A DNA stretch of 64,000 nucleotides from the IMG/VR virus record IMGVR_UViG_3300047323_000138, positions 23,352-87,351 of that record. One strand, written 5' to 3'. Position numbers and translations under genes: made by a program. Positions 2,920-25,400 of this stretch are shown in pieces (the stretch's first letter is position 1; each line of letters begins with the position of its first letter). Under the pieces are notes generated by a model. The model ran no database searches, had not been told where the DNA came from, and saw nothing but the letters and a program-made list of their open reading frames with translations. The DNA comes from a virus.

Positions 2920-5130
2920 TTAAATTACCCTGTAAGTGAAGGTGAATACATGGTCACGAGCAGCGTTGGATCCAGCTTGGAACTCCATCAATGCCCTATC
3001 AGTTGTTGTATTGGCAGAGAGGGCACCAGATTGTGTAGTTTGCCCACAAGAGCTAACACCAACCAAATCACCGATAGCTCCAAGGTTGGATGTAACAGGA
3101 AGGGTCATTTCTATCGCTGTAGCACTGCCGTTGGTTGTTGGGTCAATGTTGATACGACCACTCACAGTAACCATTGTACCAATTTGAGTGAACATACACA
3201 CAGCGGCTGTCACAGCTTGGATGTTGCTAATGTTTGTGATTGTTGGTGTATATGTACTGGAAGTAATCCCAAGGTTTGTACGTGCATTTGCTGCTGTACT
3301 GGCTCCAGTGCCACCATCTGCTATATCTAGGTCAGTGATACCAGTAATGCTACCACCTGTAATGGTAACGCTATTACCGTTCTGTACAGCCATTGTACCA
3401 AGACCTAGTGTAGTCCTAGCAGATGGTGCATCCACATCATCAATCAAGCTACGACCATAAGTGGTCAGAGATGTTTCACCGTAAGCATCTACACCAGCAG
3501 AGTAGAACAATCTATCAGCCACAGTACCGAAGGTAGAGAACTGTTGTAGTGTATTATCCCAAGCCTGAACATCTGTACCAATAACCAATCCAAGATTGCT
3601 TCTAGCTGCGCTAGCAGTTGAAGCCCCTGTCCCGCCATCAGCTACAGTAATATCAGTGATGCCTGTTACAGAGCCACCAGTAATACTTACGCTGTTGCTA
3701 TTCTGAGTAGCGATAGTACCCAAGCCAAGATTAGTGCGTGCAGTAGGAGCATCACTTGCCCCAGTACCACCATCGGCAATAGTAATATCCGTAATCCCTA
3801 CGACACTACCACCTGTGATAGCCACATTAGCAGCATTCTGCAATGCCATGTCACCAAGGCCCAATGTTGCACGAGTAGTGGCAGCAGAAGTGTCATCTAG
3901 GATTGTACGTGCAAAAGGAGTGAGGACTGTTTGAGCAAAGGTATCTACACCAGTGCTATAGGTCAGTCCATCAGAGGCTGTAACTTGAGCAGCTAGAGCC
4001 GTCAGTGTAGCATCAACTGGTTGAGCACCGATAGAGGTAGTTGTGATAACCACATCACCCGTACCGCCATTGATTGTATTTACTACGTCTTGAATGGCAC
4101 TTTTACTGAGCTTATTAGGGCTCAAAAGCGTTTCTAGTTTAGTTTTGATATCTGTGGCAGAGTAGACACGATCAGTGATTACATCGTCGAAAACACCGCG
4201 TTGAATCATACTAGCGAAGTATGCACTTCCAGCCGGACTACCTTTCAAAGCTACGACATCAGCTCTAATTTCAAATTGAAGTTCAACACCCGCTGATAGG
4301 ATTACAGGGCTGTCTGTGAAATCGAATGTGTTATCACCCAACACCCAAGTAAGCCCATCAGTATCCTTCTCGAATGAGGTCTTGTTTGGGATGTATTTTA
4401 AAGCAACGCCATTACTGGTTTGACTAACTTTAATCCTGACATTAGTCATTGGAGCATAAGTGCGGAACTTAATAGCGTTGGTTCTGGCATTGTTCTGCAC
4501 AACGTACAAGAATGTCAGCGGATTGTCTGGGAGATTTGTACTGTCAATAGGCTGAGCACCAAATTCAAATTCAGGCTCAATCAAATGAAATACAGTAGGT
4601 TCAGAAGATGCAGCAGTACGTGGAGTATAGAAGTCCACAATCGTGTACTGACGATCATTAAGAAGGTTGGATATACCGAGGAAACCAGCTACTTCAGACA
4701 GCTTCAGAACATCGCCGAAGGTAACGGAGCCGCTCTCCACGCCGAAGCCGGGCGGGGCTAGAATTGTACCGTCTTCCAGTACTCGCATCCCGGAGCCAGA
4801 GAAAGTACCGTCAATAAGCTTATATGGAATCTCACCAATGGGCACTCCCGCTAAGGAGACTACTTCACCATTTGGACCTTGAACAACAGGAGTAATGTCT
4901 ACCCATTGTCCGGCAATACGTTGCATGAAGGCAGAGGTTAGCACTACATCCGTATAGATCAACCTACCCAGAAGATCGCTGTTACCATCATAAATGGCTA
5001 AGTTGGAAGGGTTGCTAGCAAAGTAGCTATCTCGTGCAGCTTCTGCTGCTGTCCTATCAGCACCCATGAAGTCATGAGTCTGTGGACCCATACGAAGGGA
5101 TCTATTAATTCTGGAATCTGTTGCACTCAT
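2920..5130 (-). CDS. Fibre-like virion protein with internal repeats
   Basis: 736 aa; three ITGGS..GITD...ADGGTGAS.A..AR.NLG repeats typical of phage fibre shafts; SD AAGGAG. Confidence 0.75.
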   Translation of the reverse strand: MSATDSRINRSLRMGPQTHDFMGADRTAAEAARDSYFASNPSNLAIYDGNSDLLGRLIYTDVVLTSAFMQRIAGQWVDITPVVQGPNGEVVSLAGVPIGEIPYKLIDGTFSGSGMRVLEDGTILAPPGFGVESGSVTFGDVLKLSEVAGFLGISNLLNDRQYTIVDFYTPRTAASSEPTVFHLIEPEFEFGAQPIDSTNLPDNPLTFLYVVQNNARTNAIKFRTYAPMTNVRIKVSQTSNGVALKYIPNKTSFEKDTDGLTWVLGDNTFDFTDSPVILSAGVELQFEIRADVVALKGSPAGSAYFASMIQRGVFDDVITDRVYSATDIKTKLETLLSPNKLSKSAIQDVVNTINGGTGDVVITTTSIGAQPVDATLTALAAQVTASDGLTYSTGVDTFAQTVLTPFARTILDDTSAATTRATLGLGDMALQNAANVAITGGSVVGITDITIADGGTGASDAPTARTNLGLGTIATQNSNSVSITGGSVTGITDITVADGGTGASTASAARSNLGLVIGTDVQAWDNTLQQFSTFGTVADRLFYSAGVDAYGETSLTTYGRSLIDDVDAPSARTTLGLGTMAVQNGNSVTITGGSITGITDLDIADGGTGASTAANARTNLGITSSTYTPTITNISNIQAVTAAVCMFTQIGTMVTVSGRINIDPTTNGSATAIEMTLPVTSNLGAIGDLVGVSSCGQTTQSGALSANTTTDRALMEFQAGSNAARDHVFTFTYRVI

Positions 5131-5704: not shown

Positions 5705-6109
5705 TTATTCGTCTTCATCAGGTTCAACGAACACCAACGACAAACGAGGTTTCATCTCGGACTTAATCTGTTCCGGGGTTTGTTCTTCCTCTTCAGGATC
5801 ACGCTTCCCTTCAGCACGGGCTTTGAAGTTTGTAATCTCATCGCTGCTAGCTGCTTTTTCAACGCTAACAATCGAGTTGATCACCCACTTTGCACTTGCA
5901 ACGGATTCAGAGTTAACAGTTTCGTTGTTAAGACTCTTATCAATCAAAGCTAGAGCAATATCTTCTCGTGTACGAAGCTTATCAGCCAACTCACGAAGTT
6001 TACTCTTTTTGATACGAACCTTACTATTTCCTTTCAAGTTTTGATTAGAGCGTTCCGCCCCGAATCGTGTACTTGGGCTAGGGTTTGGATTTGTAATCTT
6101 CTTGGTCAT
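5705..6109 (-). CDS. Putative terminase small subunit
   Basis: 134 aa upstream of terL; N-terminal TRF...N.KG..K pattern and helical core; assignment mainly by synteny. Confidence 0.55.
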   Translation of the reverse strand: MTKKITNPNPSPSTRFGAERSNQNLKGNSKVRIKKSKLRELADKLRTREDIALALIDKSLNNETVNSESVASAKWVINSIVSVEKAASSDEITNFKARAEGKRDPEEEEQTPEQIKSEMKPRLSLVFVEPDEDE

Positions 6110-6798
6110 ACTAGTTCCTTATACTTCTGATGGAATATTTTACGGGCTTGGATATCTTTAATACCAAGCTCTCTTTGAATTTGGATTATTTTATAACCTT
6201 TCTCAGCCAACTCACGTCCAAGTCTGTATCCTTTGCGAGTTAGAAATCCAAAGTGAGTTATCTTATCCAAATCTCTCCAATCAAAAGGTAGTACATCTGT
6301 ATGGACCGAGTAGTTGTCACCGTTAATTACTTTCTCAACAGCCCAGCGACCACAATCAAAGTATTTACTCAGTGCTTTCACATCTAGACGTTCTTCTCTA
6401 AATTCAGTTCGAATAAAGTAAACATCATCTTCCGTGAATAAAGCAGTTGCATTATTTTCACCTTGTTGACCAAACAACCACCTATCACGAGTGCCGTGCT
6501 TTACAGAATCAGCTTGATTCTCTTTGTGAGTGCCGGTTGCAAGATGCAGAGGGTTGTTGCACAGGCTGTTACCACACAAGTGGCGGACAACTAGTTCGTC
6601 TGGAACTTCACCTACGAACAACGTATAGAAAAGTCGATGTGTATGCCAATTTTTATTGTCGTGTTTTTGTTGACCATAACCATCACCTTGCTTGAAGATG
6701 CTTTTACGCCACAACCAACAGCCTTGATGATTCTCAATAACATTTTCCATCAAATGAATCTTTAATTCTTCAATACTTCTTGAGTTTGGACCGGCCAT
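6106..6798 (-). CDS. HNH homing endonuclease (HNH_3 type)
   Basis: GCWLW...THRLFY...VVRHLCGNSLCNNPLHLATGTHKEN. Confidence 0.9.
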   Translation of the reverse strand: MAGPNSRSIEELKIHLMENVIENHQGCWLWRKSIFKQGDGYGQQKHDNKNWHTHRLFYTLFVGEVPDELVVRHLCGNSLCNNPLHLATGTHKENQADSVKHGTRDRWLFGQQGENNATALFTEDDVYFIRTEFREERLDVKALSKYFDCGRWAVEKVINGDNYSVHTDVLPFDWRDLDKITHFGFLTRKGYRLGRELAEKGYKIIQIQRELGIKDIQARKIFHQKYKELV

Positions 6799-7091: not shown

Positions 7092-9599
7092 TTATGAAAC
7101 ATAAAGGTCCCCCAAAGTGCTTGTAAAAAAGTTCCAAGTAGCATTAGGGTTTGTTGATCCAATAGGTGTAGCCTTCAATTGTGAAGAGGCGTCAATAGAC
7201 CATGTGAACGATGGGAATGTTCCACCAGCACCAGTTAGAAGCCCAACAGCACTGACAGTTACCAATTGAGGAGCAAGAGACGTGGCTCCCTTAGCTACCT
7301 GAAGGATGTAATGTGCTGTCTCAGAAGCATTTGCATCGACTTGTTTAACTGTAATGAACAATACACCGGAAAAGTTGGTTGCTGTACCATCTTGTGAAAC
7401 ACAAGTACCAACCACGTTTCCGGTGGTTGTCAGGTTCTTGGAGATTGTCTGTGATGCAGTGTTGATCCTTTTAGATGAATAGTCCCTACGTGCTGTGCTG
7501 TTCTCGTCACGATTACCCACACCAGTGATAAAATCATAGGAAGTTCCCAGCGGGACGTTAACGGTGTTATATCTTGCTCTTGCTCCTTTGGAACCCTCAG
7601 AGTCAGTGGAGATAGATATCCCAGATGCTCCAGCAACGCCTGAGTGTAGATAACAGCCCTCAACAATAGCCTTACCTTTGTTTACCCTAATACCAGACCC
7701 ATTGAATTGGTATGCTGTTACGTCTTTTACAACAACATCGGGAAGAAGCTCAAGACCTCCGGTGGGGGAGATGTCACCGGTGACATCTGCCACGTTGTTC
7801 AGGAATGCACTAGTAATCATGTAGGCATTAGCTTTACTACCTACGGCAGAGCAGTTCTCAATGCTTGCATTTTGAGCACCGTATACCGAGAACGAATGTG
7901 ATCCGGAGGTGGGGTTCCTCTCTATAATATCAACACCGCGCATGACAACATGCTCGTGGTAGCCGCCAGAGGCCGCCGCGATAATAGCCACACCTGTTGC
8001 GGAGCCTGCTGCTGGAACATCACCTACACTGAGGGCAGACGGAAGAACTTCAATATTACTGGCGATACCACACTTGTACAAACGATGAGTACCTGTGAAA
8101 GCACCAATAGTTTTGTAAGTACCTGTGATAGCATCTTCCTTGGTTTCAGCTACTTTAATAGTGTTAGCGTCAACTACAATAGCGAAATAGTAATTGGCCC
8201 GTCCAAAACCAGTAATCGCTGTGTTGTTCTGGCGGGAGTAAATTAAAGGGTAACCTGTAGTCAATCCGTGCGCTGTCAGGGTGAGAGCATTTGCGGAAGA
8301 TGTGGTAAAATCGTATTTACCTAAAGTGTATGGCTCTATACCAATAACTTCACGCATAGTGTCGGTAGAGAACACCTGCATACTACCATGATCTACGTTC
8401 CCATATTGAAGGCCGAAGTTACCGCCTTTCTCACAGATAAGTTTTCCATAGCAGTTAGTGGACGGTCTGTTATATGGATAAAAAGCACTAACGCCTACGG
8501 CTCCACCCAAAGCAGTGCCATCTGAAATTACTTTCAAATCTAGGAATAGACCATCTGTATTATCTAGCAATATACCATGTTCAGCATGAGTACCAATACG
8601 AGCTACAGTGAATCCCTTCAAGGATATGTTCTTAAGTCTTGGTCCAGTGAATGGGCTTGCAAAGAACAGCTTACCAGAAGATGGAAACTTACAATAAATT
8701 GCAGGAGAATAGCTATCATCCCCCAAGATATCCATTGAAGACCACACATGTATTGTATCAGTGATCATGTACTTCTTGTTTCTTTTAAGCTTGATTGGTA
8801 AGCCCGAAGCTTCTGCTGCAAGGAAGGCTGGCGTACAATCCGTGCCAATCTGGGTATCTGGGTCATAGTCACCAACTGCACCAAACAATTCAATAGGCAC
8901 ACGAGAGTCACCAAGTATGGAGTAGATAGTGGCTGGTGTGCCATCAAGGTCAATACCGATCAAGGCCGCGCCTTTTAAATGATCGGAGTTGTTGGATAGA
9001 TCTGCGATATCAGCTTTAGTAGAAAGAAGCCCTTCAGTATACACAGCACTAGCTTCAGCGGCATTAGCCGAATCCAAAGAATCCTGTGCAGATGTGGAAG
9101 CTTCAGCAGCCTTAGTGGTGGATACACCCGCAGAAGTACTAGCAGATGATGCACTATTAGCCGAGTTAGTTGCAGAGGTTTGACTGGCTGTAGCACTGTT
9201 TGCAGATTGAGTAGCTGACGTACTCGCATTCGTAGCACTTACAGCAGCAGCATTCTTACTAGCCAATGCAGCAGCAGCGTCAGCTGCCACTTGAGCTACA
9301 AGAGGGTCTGAATGAGCTGTTTGACCAATCATCAACAGAGCATTAATAGTTGTCTCTGTTGTATCATCTGTAATTTCAATATTACCAATGCTTGTAAATG
9401 CATGGTAATCATTTACGAATACACTTACTTTATACCAGCCATTAGGGACATCAATTTCATATGCTCCATCCACATTTGTCTTAAAATCTTTAGTGACAAA
9501 CTGGAGAACATCTGGAGATGTGTTGTTAGCTGTAATCCGTACAAGTGAATTTGAATATGGAACACCTGTAGGGGTTAGAAGAATACCTGAAAGAATCAT
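7092..9599 (-). CDS. Tailspike/tail fibre, putative depolymerase
   Basis: Lambda-stf-like N-terminus, Ala/Ser-rich linker, ELFGAVGD...DCTPAFLAA beta-helix entry motif, beta-rich body. Confidence 0.8.
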   Translation of the reverse strand: MILSGILLTPTGVPYSNSLVRITANNTSPDVLQFVTKDFKTNVDGAYEIDVPNGWYKVSVFVNDYHAFTSIGNIEITDDTTETTINALLMIGQTAHSDPLVAQVAADAAAALASKNAAAVSATNASTSATQSANSATASQTSATNSANSASSASTSAGVSTTKAAEASTSAQDSLDSANAAEASAVYTEGLLSTKADIADLSNNSDHLKGAALIGIDLDGTPATIYSILGDSRVPIELFGAVGDYDPDTQIGTDCTPAFLAAEASGLPIKLKRNKKYMITDTIHVWSSMDILGDDSYSPAIYCKFPSSGKLFFASPFTGPRLKNISLKGFTVARIGTHAEHGILLDNTDGLFLDLKVISDGTALGGAVGVSAFYPYNRPSTNCYGKLICEKGGNFGLQYGNVDHGSMQVFSTDTMREVIGIEPYTLGKYDFTTSSANALTLTAHGLTTGYPLIYSRQNNTAITGFGRANYYFAIVVDANTIKVAETKEDAITGTYKTIGAFTGTHRLYKCGIASNIEVLPSALSVGDVPAAGSATGVAIIAAASGGYHEHVVMRGVDIIERNPTSGSHSFSVYGAQNASIENCSAVGSKANAYMITSAFLNNVADVTGDISPTGGLELLPDVVVKDVTAYQFNGSGIRVNKGKAIVEGCYLHSGVAGASGISISTDSEGSKGARARYNTVNVPLGTSYDFITGVGNRDENSTARRDYSSKRINTASQTISKNLTTTGNVVGTCVSQDGTATNFSGVLFITVKQVDANASETAHYILQVAKGATSLAPQLVTVSAVGLLTGAGGTFPSFTWSIDASSQLKATPIGSTNPNATWNFFTSTLGDLYVS

Positions 9600-9631
9600 A
9601 TTGTCCCTACTGGAATAATTATTGTTTTAGA

Positions 9632-9926
9632 ATTCTTAAGCGAACTTACAGGCAATGCCTTGCAATATTCATAATGAAGAAGAACGCTTAAGAAATGACC
9701 CTGTACTAAGCCTATACCGTAAGGAGAGGTACGTTACACGCTATCAAGGTCAGAAGACTAATTCACAGGAGAGGGAATGAATAGTCTTAATGCTGTCTGA
9801 GGAAGAGGAGAGAAAGACAGCTTTTGAAGATAATGCTTTATGTAGAATTTAAGTTCTTATCGCATTATCGGTGAAACTGGAATTAGTGCTCTGCTCACCC
9901 TCCCAACCGACATTCACTTTTGGAGG
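9632..9926 (-). ncRNA. Tandem hairpin array with anti-SD (CUCUCCU) loops, predicted 3' product of the hammerhead
   Basis: Seven consecutive inverted repeats; G-U wobbles favour the minus strand. Confidence 0.65.
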
Positions 9927-9928
9927 CT

Positions 9929-9975
9929 ACGCGACCTAATAAGGTTTCGACTTATCACAAAGTCTCATCAGGCGT
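9929..9975 (-). ncRNA. Hammerhead ribozyme (type I)
   Basis: ACGC-CUGAUGA-GACUU(uguGau)AAGUC-GAAA-CCU(uauu)AGG-UC^GCGU: full catalytic core, three perfect stems; cleavage predicted between 9933 and 9932. Confidence 0.92.
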
Positions 9976-10101
9976 GTTAAATAAGTGCGAATGCTGGATA
10001 CCTACTTGCAGAGCGGTGGTATCGTACGCTCGTAAATTAATGCTGGTGTTGTTTATCTCGTCTTTATCACGAGGTGGCAGAATCCAGCAACTGCGCATTC
10101 T

Positions 10102-10362
10102 TTAACAAGTGATCTGAACAGGACTTTGAAAGTCTGTCAACTTCCACTGTTTGAAGTAGTCTGAAGGATACACCCGAGTAGGTATGTCACCAACCCCTAC
10201 GAATACTTCTTTGTTACGATCAGGTGTACGCACTGGTGTGACCTTATCAAACACAAGCTTCAAATGATCTTTAATCATCAACCATTGGTTTTCAGAGATG
10301 GTGTCTGTGTCAGATAGTTCTACGAAGCCTTGAAGCCAGTATGTGAAGCTTTCGGAATTCAT
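10102..10362 (-). CDS. Hypothetical protein
   Basis: ORF track; SESFTYWLQGFVEL...IKDHLKLVF looks like a recurrent small phage protein; tightly follows upstream ORF. Confidence 0.65.
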   Translation of the reverse strand: MNSESFTYWLQGFVELSDTDTISENQWLMIKDHLKLVFDKVTPVRTPDRNKEVFVGVGDIPTRVYPSDYFKQWKLTDFQSPVQITC

Positions 10363-10499: not shown

Positions 10500-10558
10500 T
10501 TATATTTTCCTTTCGATATAAGAGTATAACATCTTTTAGATGAATTGTACACAATTAT

Positions 10559-22442: not shown

Positions 22443-25400
22443 CACCAGACAAAATCAAGAAACAAATAGAACTGCTCTGCTCGGACCTTGAGCGCTGCGA
22501 TAAACGTTGCCGTAAGATATCCAAAGCAATCGGCCTAGAAGATAATCATCTTATTTCTTGGGCTAGGAAAGAGGCTGAGAGTGTGTTAGAGTATATTGAA
22601 TTGTTGAAGGAGAAAGAAGGTGCTGATAAAGAGATTTAAAGAAAATACTGCCGGAAGGGACTTCTTCACAACAGATATACATGGTTGCTTTGACCTGTTG
22701 CATGAACAAATGAGGCTACATGCTTTTGATACAACCAAGGATAGATTGTTTGTAGGAGGGGACAACGCGGACAGGGGTCCATATTCAGACACAGTATTAG
22801 ATTACATCTATGAACCTTGGTTTCACAGTATTAGATCTAACCATGAAGAGATGCTAATCACTGCTTTTGAGAATCCAACAAGCCGTAACGCTTATGAGAT
22901 GCTCTATTGTAATGGTGGTGAATGGTTCTATGATTGTACACATGAGAAGCAGAAAGCTATCTATGAGGCTTTCAAGTCTTTACCATTAGCAATTGAAATT
23001 GAAAATCCTCAAGGCCTGATCGGTATCATACATGCCCAAGTTCCTATGGATGATTGGGAAAAGTTTAGAGGCATGTCTGAACAGGATCTTTACTGGAGTG
23101 GGTACGCTATTGCACAATGGTCGAGAACCAAGTATGATAAACAAGATGTAACAGATGTGAAGGGTTTGTATAAGTGTTTCGTGGGACATAGCCCAACTAA
23201 CTCAGGCGAGGTTGAACAATTAGGTAACACTTACTACTCGGATCTGGGCAGCTTCTTTCGAGATAAAATATCTTTCATTGAGATCAACTAAAATGACACA
23301 AGAACAATATTACCTTCTAGAACGACTACGTACAAACCTCCTAGACGCTGCATCTGAGCTAGAACTTCTAGGCAAACTGCCAAGGTTTACACAGAATATT
23401 GATTGGATGTTGGATGAACTTGAAGAGTATATTAAATTGCAGAAGGAGGTTGATAAATGAAAGAGAAATCAGACGGTGAGATTTATGAAGATGTTAGCCG
23501 TAAAGCTAATCCAGAGCTACATGCACAAATAGATGCTTGGATACAAAGTCTTCATGAAGGGCAACAACAGCTCATCAATGAAGATGCACAATTGATTGAA
23601 GATAATTATTGGGAGTTAATATTGAAATGAGTAATGTAAACTTTAAACCGATGGATGATAAGCAACGAGAGCAGGTGCGGCTCAAAAGGGCTGCTGACCA
23701 AGCTTATGCTAAAGAGAACTTGATTACAGATTTCAAAGACGAGCAGTTCTGGCGAGAGAATGCCTCCAAAGTGGCGCTACGCCTCCCCGGTTGGTGGATT
23801 CCTAGTAGCGAAACAAAATACATTCGACGTGCATGTAAAGCTTTAGGTGTAGATATTAATTTATTTGTGGAAAGCACAGGCTTTTCTAACTTAAATCAGC
23901 TCGTAAAGGCTAATTCTAAGTGGTCGGCTGTGGGTATGGTTGGGTTGTGTGTGGAATTTGCCATCGAAACTGGAAAGTTGGCGTAGTTTTTACCCTGCCA
24001 ATCAACGAAAAACTAAAATTCATCTCCGTACACAGGGGTATACTAAAATGACAATTCTTGCTATATATTTAATCGGTGTAATCTTCACATTCTATTATGA
24101 GACAGAGGATATCTTCCTTGGATCGCTCCCTACATCTATTCAAGGGACAATTATATTCTCTTTATGTTGGCCCTTTAGCATAATCTTCGGAGCTGCTATC
24201 ATGTGGAAAGAGATTATTAAGAAACGTGGAGAGAAGAAATGACTGCTAATCGCACACTTGCTGAACAACGTGGATTATCTGAGTCCCAAATCCAAGAGAT
24301 TGATCGTCTGCACGAACATCTTGACAAAACAATAAACTATTTCATTGAACAAGGCTGGACACAGGCACGAGAAGATGAAATTCATGATATCGAATACCTC
24401 CTACAACAAGCTTGGGGATTTCCTAAAGACTGTGGATATCATCGTTATGCACACCAATATGCTTTTGTCTGTCAGTGGTTTGGTCGGACATTCAAGTGTG
24501 TAGAAACTGGGAATCAAATTACGTTAGGGAAGGACATCTACGAACGTCAGTATATTCCTTTCGGTAATTGTGCAATTGACTTGGGTGTCTTGAATGGCTA
24601 CTCTCGTCGTATTGGAAATATGGAGGAAATTAAGAAATGACCCAACAATATTCACCCGAGAAACAATTGATCAAAGACTTCATCCGCTACATTTCTGATA
24701 ATCATAAGTGCTGTGTGGTGAGTTTTCCAGATGAGTTTGCTGCTGACAGCTATTTGAACTACAAATTTGTCAATACGTGTGAATTGCTGGATGAATTTAT
24801 TAGGGAGAGAAAGACATGAGTTGGGTTCAAGTAGATGAAAAGACTGCTGAGTGGTTGTTACGACAACGTAATGACGACAACATCCTATACTCTTCGAACT
24901 CTTTGCACTGCTGGGATGAGATATTCACAGCAGGAGGTTGTAGATTTAAGGTGGAAGGTTCGTTCTACTCAGATGAAGTATCAGTCTATAAGGAAGAACA
25001 ACTATGAACCAAACAATTGAAGAAAGATTCCAATCCATAGAAGACCAACTCAAAGAGCTTCGCAAGGAATTGGAGAGTGACCTTGCGAAATATAGGGATA
25101 GTAGTTATTTAATTAAGAGGGAGAAATCATGAACAAAACAGAACTCATTGGAGTGGCAATAGCTATAACACTTATGCCTTATATTATTGGGGTGTGGTTA
25201 GTTTACAACATCAGGGGTGGGAAATGAATCAGAAAGCTATTGAAACTTATGCGGTACATCTCTATAGAACACGAAAGCCTTGGTCTGATCCGTATGCATA
25301 TTACATTGAGTACACTGGTAACTATTATGGAGAAGACTCCGATGGAACAAGGATCTACAATTGGCAAGAATACGAACAAGAGTCTAGCGATGCTGTGGAT

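Follow-up and report, generated by a model that had tools for sequence, protein, structure and literature searches.

A conserved RNA array with anti-Shine-Dalgarno-like loops, most likely a processed operon leader, in a clade of uncultured soil phages

The 64,000-nucleotide stretch of viral DNA analyzed here (the window; positions 23,352 to 87,351 of IMG/VR record IMGVR_UViG_3300047323_000138) is part of a complete phage genome of 87,351 bp with direct terminal repeats. On its minus strand, at window positions 9878-9632 and directly ahead of a tail-fiber gene, it carries an RNA module composed of a 9-nt tag and five hairpins, H0 to H4, three of which display a pyrimidine-only loop with the word (C)UCUCC. 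That a structured RNA family exists is close to certain, and to this extent the proposal of a new phage RNA, made in a first-pass annotation from the letters alone, is borne out: the hairpins exceed chance, the loops are conserved and the stems covary across relatives. By its letters, the loop word copies the anti-Shine-Dalgarno (anti-SD) core of 16S rRNA. The array is most likely a processed 5' leader of the tail-fiber and packaging operon, possibly trimmed further, and its loops may occlude GGAG-type ribosome-binding sites (RBSs) of other mRNAs, a function to which, by analogy with known RNAs, we give slightly less than even chances.

The array occurs once in the window phage genome and opens with the tag AGUUUCACC (9870-9878; this and all other window features given below lie on the minus strand), which is invariant in the first 14 members of the family found. 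H0 (9869-9829), delimited by single-sequence folds, contains a small inner stem, and its apical part, which resembles AAAUUCUA, is conserved. Folding and covariation define H1 (9821-9792), with a 7-bp stem and a 16-nt pyrimidine-only loop, UUCUCUCCUCUUCCUC, at 9814-9799, and H3 (9752-9696), a long hairpin with the loop CCUCUCCU at 9729-9722. Between them stands H2 (9788-9754), whose loop, UCCCUCUCCU at 9776-9767, is carried by a covarying inner stem above a conserved AAGA/UCUU base; 11 of the 12 pairs in the H2 helices show compensatory changes. Extended to 9720, the H3 loop has CUCCUUA as its final seven letters, a match to the 3' end of 16S rRNA. The last element of the module, H4 (9694-9633), consists of a closing stem, UUCUUAAG/CUUAAGAA, that encloses two small hairpins. 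The array is C-rich and G-poor, with 56 C versus 39 G in the window and 51 versus 28 in the relative L012.

This five-hairpin fold was obtained with the base-pair span limited. Minus-strand RNA from 9600 to 9945 folds at -96 kcal/mol (z = -4.09 against shuffles), and the module alone reaches z = -5.1 in the window and -5.4 to -7.8 in five relatives. For the RNA as it would be left by cleavage at the ribozyme described below, the ensemble gives the H1, H2 and H3 loops mean unpaired probabilities of 0.92, 0.95 and 1.00, so that the three CUCUCC(U) loops to which the first-pass annotation had drawn attention are present and predicted to be unpaired. The seven back-to-back stems of that annotation fared unevenly. 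Five of them coincide exactly with the borders of H0 to H4 and recur in every relative. The first, at 9926-9899, is real and covaries, yet it is the final hairpin of the hammerhead module and not a part of the array. The second, formed by GGUGAG with UUCACC (9899-9870), is not supported, as its pair probabilities do not exceed 0.07 in the cleaved RNA, it bridges two modules and it is absent in relatives. A different interaction appears in the minimum free energy (MFE) fold of the cleaved RNA, where the 3' tail of the hammerhead, ACUAAUUC (9893-9882), pairs with the 3' arm of H2, GAAUUAGU (9765-9758), and replaces H2. This alternative is specific to the window, and the loops are open in both folds.

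Relatives were collected in IMG/VR by a search with the N-terminus of the tail-fiber protein, then by pattern scans and then by a search with the small protein encoded downstream. These gave 19 distinct array members, all in uncultured phage contigs of 80-93 kb, and each of them folds alone into the tag, H0, two or three pyrimidine-loop hairpins and H4. Two members of a distant subclade (L293, 3765-3925, and L294, 3770-3975) have just two pyrimidine-loop hairpins between H0 and H4. Among the matches listed for the loose pattern scans (three CTCTCCT words; GTTTCACC..AAATTCT), most were chance or coding repeats and only L069 and L078 were real; a tblastn search of phage records with the tail-fiber N-terminus gave no match.

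Aligning these members by sequence proved unsuitable, whether as whole modules or as single hairpins, since MAFFT misplaced the stems into different columns and RNAalifold then saw H4 alone, with compensatory changes in 14 of its 20 pairs on the plain MAFFT alignment. Because stems that share no sequence defeat MAFFT in this way, a model-guided alignment was used. A covariance model for which only H1-H3 of the window served as input recovers every one of the 14 members known at that point (E-values of 3e-46 to 2e-4), with no match in 15 control loci. In the resulting 14-member alignment, 95.8% of the 498 pair cells hold standard pairs, as against 66.8% in shuffles, and at 33 of the 40 pairs both sides have changed in a compensatory way. 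The score for covariation, 0.684, compares with 0.207 in shuffles, none of 500 of which came as high, and it falls to 0.08 or below when the pairing partners are slid by one to three columns. An alignment of this kind, being fitted to the model, is biased towards structure; the independent single-sequence folds agree with it.

The loops behave in the opposite manner. Across the 19 members there are 52 pyrimidine-rich apical loops, every one of which contains CUCC, 50 of which contain UCUCC and 45 CUCUCC, and not a single G occurs among their 604 nucleotides. Three additional H1 loops, flanked by A residues, contain CUCUCC too, and within the large H1 loops the position of the word shifts. Selection acts on the loops and leaves the stems free to change. 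The module as a whole also moves: contigs of other samples part from the window sequence at 9629-9633 and 9878, and in one DNA contig 435 other bases replace 9612-9887. Such sharp divergence at the module borders means that the module behaves as an exchangeable cassette. Separately, three members (L013, 2815-3000; L279; L281) carry an extra 118-292 nt behind H4 and ahead of the following gene, with the inverted repeat AAUAUUUCUCAUGUGUU ... AACACAGCAGAAAUAUU at its borders; this segment may be another inserted RNA element.

That the array RNA is the minus strand is settled, in agreement with the strand first proposed. When 65 distinct hairpins are read in the sense direction, they contain 71 G-U pairs and 2 A-C single mismatches, compared with 21 and 18 in the antisense direction, and their summed MFE is -848 versus -730 kcal/mol. 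The flanking tRNAs and genes all lie on the sense strand of the array as well. These statistics remove the plus-strand alternative of the first-pass annotation, according to which an RNA with AGGAGAGG loops would serve as a sponge for CsrA/RsmA. The attraction of that idea is the GGA in the plus-strand loops, the core of CsrA/RsmA sites. The plus-strand RNA, however, folds no better than shuffles (z = -0.75 for 9600-9945); the antisense fold is the weaker one in all six modules compared (z = -2.1 to -4.9), it has 18 A-C mismatches against 2 and is 118 kcal/mol less stable over the hairpin set, and the flanking tRNAs and genes lie on the opposite strand. We give the sponge virtually no chance of being correct.

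The same statistics disfavor a signal in double-stranded DNA, namely that the three direct CCTCTCCT repeats would be bound by the small terminase or by some other DNA-binding protein (cosB- or pac-like), perhaps on extruded hairpins. A word of 6-8 bp repeated directly two or three times, at a spacing of 29-42 bp, would suit such a signal, as would their location: the gene behind the array encodes a conserved basic protein of 131-143 amino acids in 9 of 14 members, where the repeats lie directly upstream of this small protein in the small-terminase position, and the tail fiber in the other 5. A site in double-stranded DNA would not require inverted repeats on its flanks, whereas the stems show strong covariation; the predominance of G-U over A-C by 71:2 on one strand also speaks for RNA. 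The small protein, moreover, has no terminase family match, and in the five members with a tail fiber a 2.5-kb gene separates it from the array. A DNA-level signal is therefore very improbable. The window itself encodes this protein (134 amino acids, 5705-6109) behind the tail-fiber gene and an HNH endonuclease gene (6106-6798) that stands between the two. Similar phage contigs encode at least 160 homologues of it, all without a name, and neither Pfam nor PHROG has a match for it. A 'small terminase' (terS) label was considered for it and set aside, with no backing from Pfam, PHROGs or source names; as there is no family match, that label would rest on position alone.

What the array belongs to is best judged from its surroundings. 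Together with the hammerhead it occupies a 502-nt minus-strand gap between an open reading frame (ORF) of 86 amino acids (10362-10102) and the tail-fiber gene (7092-9599; 835 amino acids), which matches Pfam phage_tail_N at 39.5 bits and several PHROG tail-fiber families and is the first cistron behind the array. A scan of the minus strand from 10523 to 9300 finds no promoter-like and no terminator-like site, and none before the tail-fiber gene; the RNA runs from H4 into a linker and a weak RBS, AGUAGGGACAAU (9632-9597), with the AUG at 9599-9597. Because the array has neither a terminator nor a promoter of its own and its RNA enters the next RBS, it is read as a processed operon leader, and the self-processing small RNA (sRNA) of the first-pass annotation is not supported in the form in which it was written. 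The sole minus-strand promoter-like match upstream of the region is a sigma-70-like match at 10523-10551 (9 of 12 consensus positions and a TG extension; a consensus match only). Located upstream of the hammerhead, it is a possible candidate for the start of a transcript bearing two small ORFs, the ribozyme and the array, in a region where promoter-like matches are no more numerous than in shuffles. A sigma-70 promoter within H4 (TTGCAA ... TAAGAA) was also considered and dropped on account of its poor spacing and poor -10 hexamer; the scan finds none there.

The RBS behind the array has a character of its own. The start codon follows H4 by 16-51 nt in 11 of 14 members, and in all 14 the RBS is weak and not of the GGAG type (UAGGGA, UAGGAA, AAGGUA, UAGGUA), whereas GGAG is used by about 44% of the window phage's genes, as judged from crude gene calls. 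In the window, the Shine-Dalgarno (SD) sequence of the tail-fiber gene is partly paired with a UUCC just upstream and has an unpaired probability of 0.27. At that place L012 (2978-3003), and likewise L266 and L287, have a fourth CUCUCC 5' of the tail-fiber SD (..CUCUCCA..AGUAGGGAC..), with predicted SD pairing, where the window carries UUCC.

A leader of this kind might also work in cis by binding a protein. The candidates would be ribosomal protein S1, acting as an enhancer for the weak RBS; Rho, whose loading or trapping on YC-rich RNA would gate read-through from upstream genes into the late operon; or a phage regulator of the stability or translation of the tail-fiber and packaging mRNA. 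Both S1 and the primary binding site of Rho prefer single-stranded pyrimidines, which fits the C-rich, G-poor composition, and the constant position of the array just upstream of the operon's first cistron with its weak RBS, the lack of a terminator or promoter of its own, and the number of loop copies, fixed at two or three, all accord with a cis-acting element. The specificity of S1 and Rho is loose, yet UCUCC is exact in 50 of 52 loops. The variable position of the motif in the H1 loops disfavors a structure-specific protein; a single-stranded pairing seed fits this shift better than does a fixed protein-binding fold. Furthermore, the cassette is exchanged between phages and stands before two unrelated genes, and no RNA-binding domain was found when the neighboring genes were scanned. 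Taken together, a protein-binding leader is possible, if somewhat unlikely.

For the reading as a processed leader with anti-SD loops, the sequences upstream of the array are of particular interest. Clusters of one to six tRNAs precede the array in most array-bearing relatives, and in L010, L012, L257, L265 and L273 the tag's first A doubles as the final A of the tRNA CCA end; tRNA-like ends lie upstream of the array in three further members. The window phage has no tRNA gene anywhere in its 87,351-bp genome, and here a hammerhead stands in the tRNA position. The notion of a ribozyme-released array thus holds in part. A complete hammerhead core does lie just upstream, and 'ribozyme-released' is, as far as the sequence can tell, a fair description for the window phage; but ribozyme and array are two independent modules, and most relatives have tRNA genes instead. 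The replacement of tRNA genes by a hammerhead amounts to a natural experiment and suggests that an upstream cut may matter.

The hammerhead module (about 150 nt, 9886-10031) is a pseudoknotted type I hammerhead with covariation over 8 sequences. It begins with a 5' hairpin (10023-10018 with 10002-9997), the loop of which (10014-10008) pairs with 9894-9888 as a pseudoknot. The core follows, with stem I (9975-9972 with 9932-9929), CUGAUGA (9971-9965), stem II (9964-9949), GAAA and stem III (9945-9934), and after it the final hairpin at 9926-9899. The type I core CUGAUGA...GAAA...UH is complete with stem I open, and position 17 is C in the window and C, A or U in relatives, never G. Cleavage is predicted from sequence between 9933 and 9932 (GUC, cut, GCGU), and the downstream RNA would begin at 9932 with a 5'-OH. 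Pairing is kept in 91.6% of the cells over the 8 sequences, compensatory changes are seen at 19 of 35 pairs, and the covariation score is 0.496 versus 0.146 in shuffles (none of 500 as high). The pseudoknot is 100% paired and 5 of its 7 pairs covary; compensatory changes also occur in 3 of 5 pairs of stem II and 1 of 3 of stem III. The invariance of stem I and of the core is uninformative, because the search pattern fixed both. A second pseudoknot (CACUU with AAGUG) is plausible by eye in several sequences; at 48% paired on the MAFFT alignment it is not established. The loop of the 5' hairpin can alternatively pair with a 5' GAGC(N), a pairing that covaries by eye and hints at a possible switch.

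Copies of this module were found in L002 (2515-2655), L003, L005/L007/L008, L006, L009, L010 and L292. It precedes two tRNAs and the array in L010, lies about 190 nt before the array in L292, and is directly upstream of a gene resembling that of the terminase small subunit in two contigs. The core of the L292 copy (3535-3545) reads CUGACGA, with C at position 7, which is a variable position in hammerheads. A blastn search of the region against 50,697 phage records returned one partial match, to the cultured Klebsiella phage 05F01 and in the hammerhead part only; there the module sits behind the last tRNA of a tRNA array. The hammerhead is a separate mobile module, conserved independently of the array.

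How the array could act may be set out in a few steps. Co-transcribed with its minus-strand neighbors, it would form the 5' part of the tail-fiber and packaging operon RNA. The upstream cut would be made by the type I hammerhead at 9933/9932 in the window phage, and in relatives by processing of the tRNA CCA end or by RNase E at AG/UUUC. The freed loops would then pair with GGAG-type RBSs of phage or host mRNAs and exclude ribosomes, and the cistron directly behind the array would escape by virtue of its non-GGAG RBS. In the phage's own genome there are 161 8-mers complementary to the three loops versus 97 ± 26 for shuffled loops, and the best loop-complementary sites, at 24804, 44396 and 12789, are true RBSs. 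One contig of the RNA library extends from H2-H4 into a non-GGAG RBS and start codon, a weak hint at co-transcription.

Several observations weigh against masking of this kind. The enrichment of complementary sites is modest, since 5 of 200 loop shuffles reach 161, and it is partly trivial, because CU-rich words match purine-rich RBSs. GGAG RBSs are present in every gene module, with no clean split into early and late or structural and non-structural genes, so that no target class stands out. Four members have a protein-coding gene upstream of the array and neither a tRNA nor a ribozyme directly there, and a defined 5' cut may therefore not be essential. The RNA data consist of low-depth contigs from one RNA library and from two runs guessed to be RNA, which possibly contain DNA; the RNA-library contigs cover just 9629-9878 at a depth of 2-6 and are uninformative on ends, strand and expression. 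A leader attached to a long mRNA would be an unusual form for a trans-acting regulator, and the strict conservation of one hexamer would equally suit a sequence-specific protein. PHROG annotation of the nine genes with the best loop-complementary RBSs and of the 134-amino-acid protein revealed no common class, and the idea that the phage's RBSs are specially GGAGAG was discarded, as AA is commoner than AG after GGAG (18 versus 10 of 74), near the genome background.

The likeness of the loops to 16S rRNA could be put to another use. The loops might imitate the 3' end of 16S rRNA and absorb a host factor that recognizes or cuts the anti-SD tail, such as a toxin of the MazF type released in abortive infection. 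A specificity of CUCCU or UCCUU has been reported for MazF-mt3, and phages are known to use RNA decoys against toxin-antitoxin systems, pseudo-ToxI being an example. Around the H3 loop the letters are CUCCUUA in the window and in L013 and L273, and six further members have CUCCUU there; several copies are exposed on each RNA. On the other side, H3 matches the 16S tail better than the H1 and H2 loops do, a cleavable decoy would be consumed while working, and no such toxin is known for the phage's host. We consider the decoy improbable.

A function is known for only a few regulatory RNAs of virulent phages, and the design of this one is unusually clear: conserved loops on stems free to vary, in a single copy per genome. 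It recurs across a large clade of uncultured soil phages. The large terminase of the window phage shares 43% identity with its counterparts in Pseudomonas Otagovirus-like myoviruses, and the metagenomes that contain the window stretch come mainly from soil, rhizosphere and root. The pseudoknotted hammerhead variant is of separate interest: unrelated phages, a cultured Klebsiella phage among them, share it in conserved form. If the loops do mask RBSs, phages would gain a cheap, RNA-only means of reprogramming translation. The fullest version of this idea would have a soil phage clade with an RNA-only translation device in which two or three anti-SD loops, freed from a late operon by tRNA processing or by a pseudoknotted hammerhead, mask GGAG RBSs genome-wide and shut down the translation of host or early phage genes, with the late cistron spared; as a whole we regard it as doubtful and rather unlikely.

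A search of the literature found no such phage RNA, and no Rfam family reaches its threshold for the array. Nothing in the whole window attains a gathering score, and permissive thresholds yield a weak hammerhead match together with chance matches. With type I hammerheads (Rfam clan CL00010) the upstream module shares the full core and the covarying stems II and III, but it remains below every gathering score (Hammerhead_3, 22.7 bits versus 48.5; HH9, 23.4 bits on one relative) and differs in its conserved 5' hairpin, pseudoknotted with the 3' tail.

The closest counterpart of the array in design is alpha-r14, or 'Cuckoo' (Rfam RF02344), a family of Alphaproteobacteria that comprises NfeR1 of Sinorhizobium meliloti and CcsR1-4 of Rhodobacter sphaeroides. 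NfeR1 consists of three hairpins with unlike stems and an identical anti-SD motif, and it silences mRNAs redundantly through RBS occlusion (PMC10746234). RNase E excises the CcsR RNAs from an untranslated region (UTR), in one case by a cut at GUUUCC (PMC8034643), a site comparable to the array tag. Shared with the array are the tandem hairpins, the unlike stems and the presence of one anti-SD word in each unpaired region, in the array on three hairpins. The Rfam ar14 model gives weak full-length matches, at 24.0 and 23.6 bits, to the arrays of two relatives, well below the gathering score of 58.8, and no match on window 9400-10300 at E-values up to 10. The words differ as well, CCUCCUCCC in alpha-r14 and (C)UCUCC in the array, where CCUCC occurs in some loops only (e.g. 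L292 H1), and the array has two extra conserved hairpins, H0 and H4. Alpha-r14 is found on bacterial chromosomes, often beside a DUF1127 gene (the CIN1 context, PMC8034643), whereas the array is phage-encoded, with tRNAs or a hammerhead before it and tail-fiber or small-protein and packaging genes after it. On sequence grounds, then, the array resembles alpha-r14/Cuckoo in design and is not a member of the family.

More distant parallels exist among the sRNAs of Firmicutes. LhrC1-5 of Listeria, RNAIII, and RsaE/RoxS of Staphylococcus and Bacillus each have a promoter of their own and an intrinsic terminator. The array shares with them the multiple C/U-rich loops, but neither a promoter nor a terminator was seen for it and its RNA runs on into an mRNA; the motif, the range of hosts and the architecture are different too. 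In such sRNAs, C/U-rich loops or single strands (UCCC, CCCC) seed on the SD regions of many mRNAs (PMC13350326). If the array loops do likewise mask RBSs, multi-loop anti-SD designs would exist both in bacteria (Cuckoo, LhrC, RNAIII) and in phages without detectable sequence homology.

Among phage RNAs, the nearest in setting are ncRNA1 and ncRNA2, two non-coding RNAs (ncRNAs) of PAK_P3, which are abundant late RNAs that have no transcription start of their own and are processed near tRNA and terminase genes (PMC10914365). These, like the species 1 and 2 RNAs of T4, are processed phage ncRNAs beside tRNA genes, as the array would be in relatives. The PAK_P3 RNAs were considered as relatives of the array and rejected, as they have no CU-loop hairpins and no sequence similarity to it. 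In Pseudomonas phage PAK_P3 (L256; record positions 85,348-86,477) they are located among tRNA genes just upstream of the terminase.

A parallel in function is offered by RegB of T4, a protein nuclease aimed at GGAG in the RBSs of early mRNAs, through which translation is reprogrammed. The parallel is functional only, for RegB cuts the site that the array RNA would mask. Should genome-wide masking of GGAG prove true, the array would be an RNA counterpart of T4 RegB and at the same time a phage version of the Cuckoo design, seemingly of independent origin.

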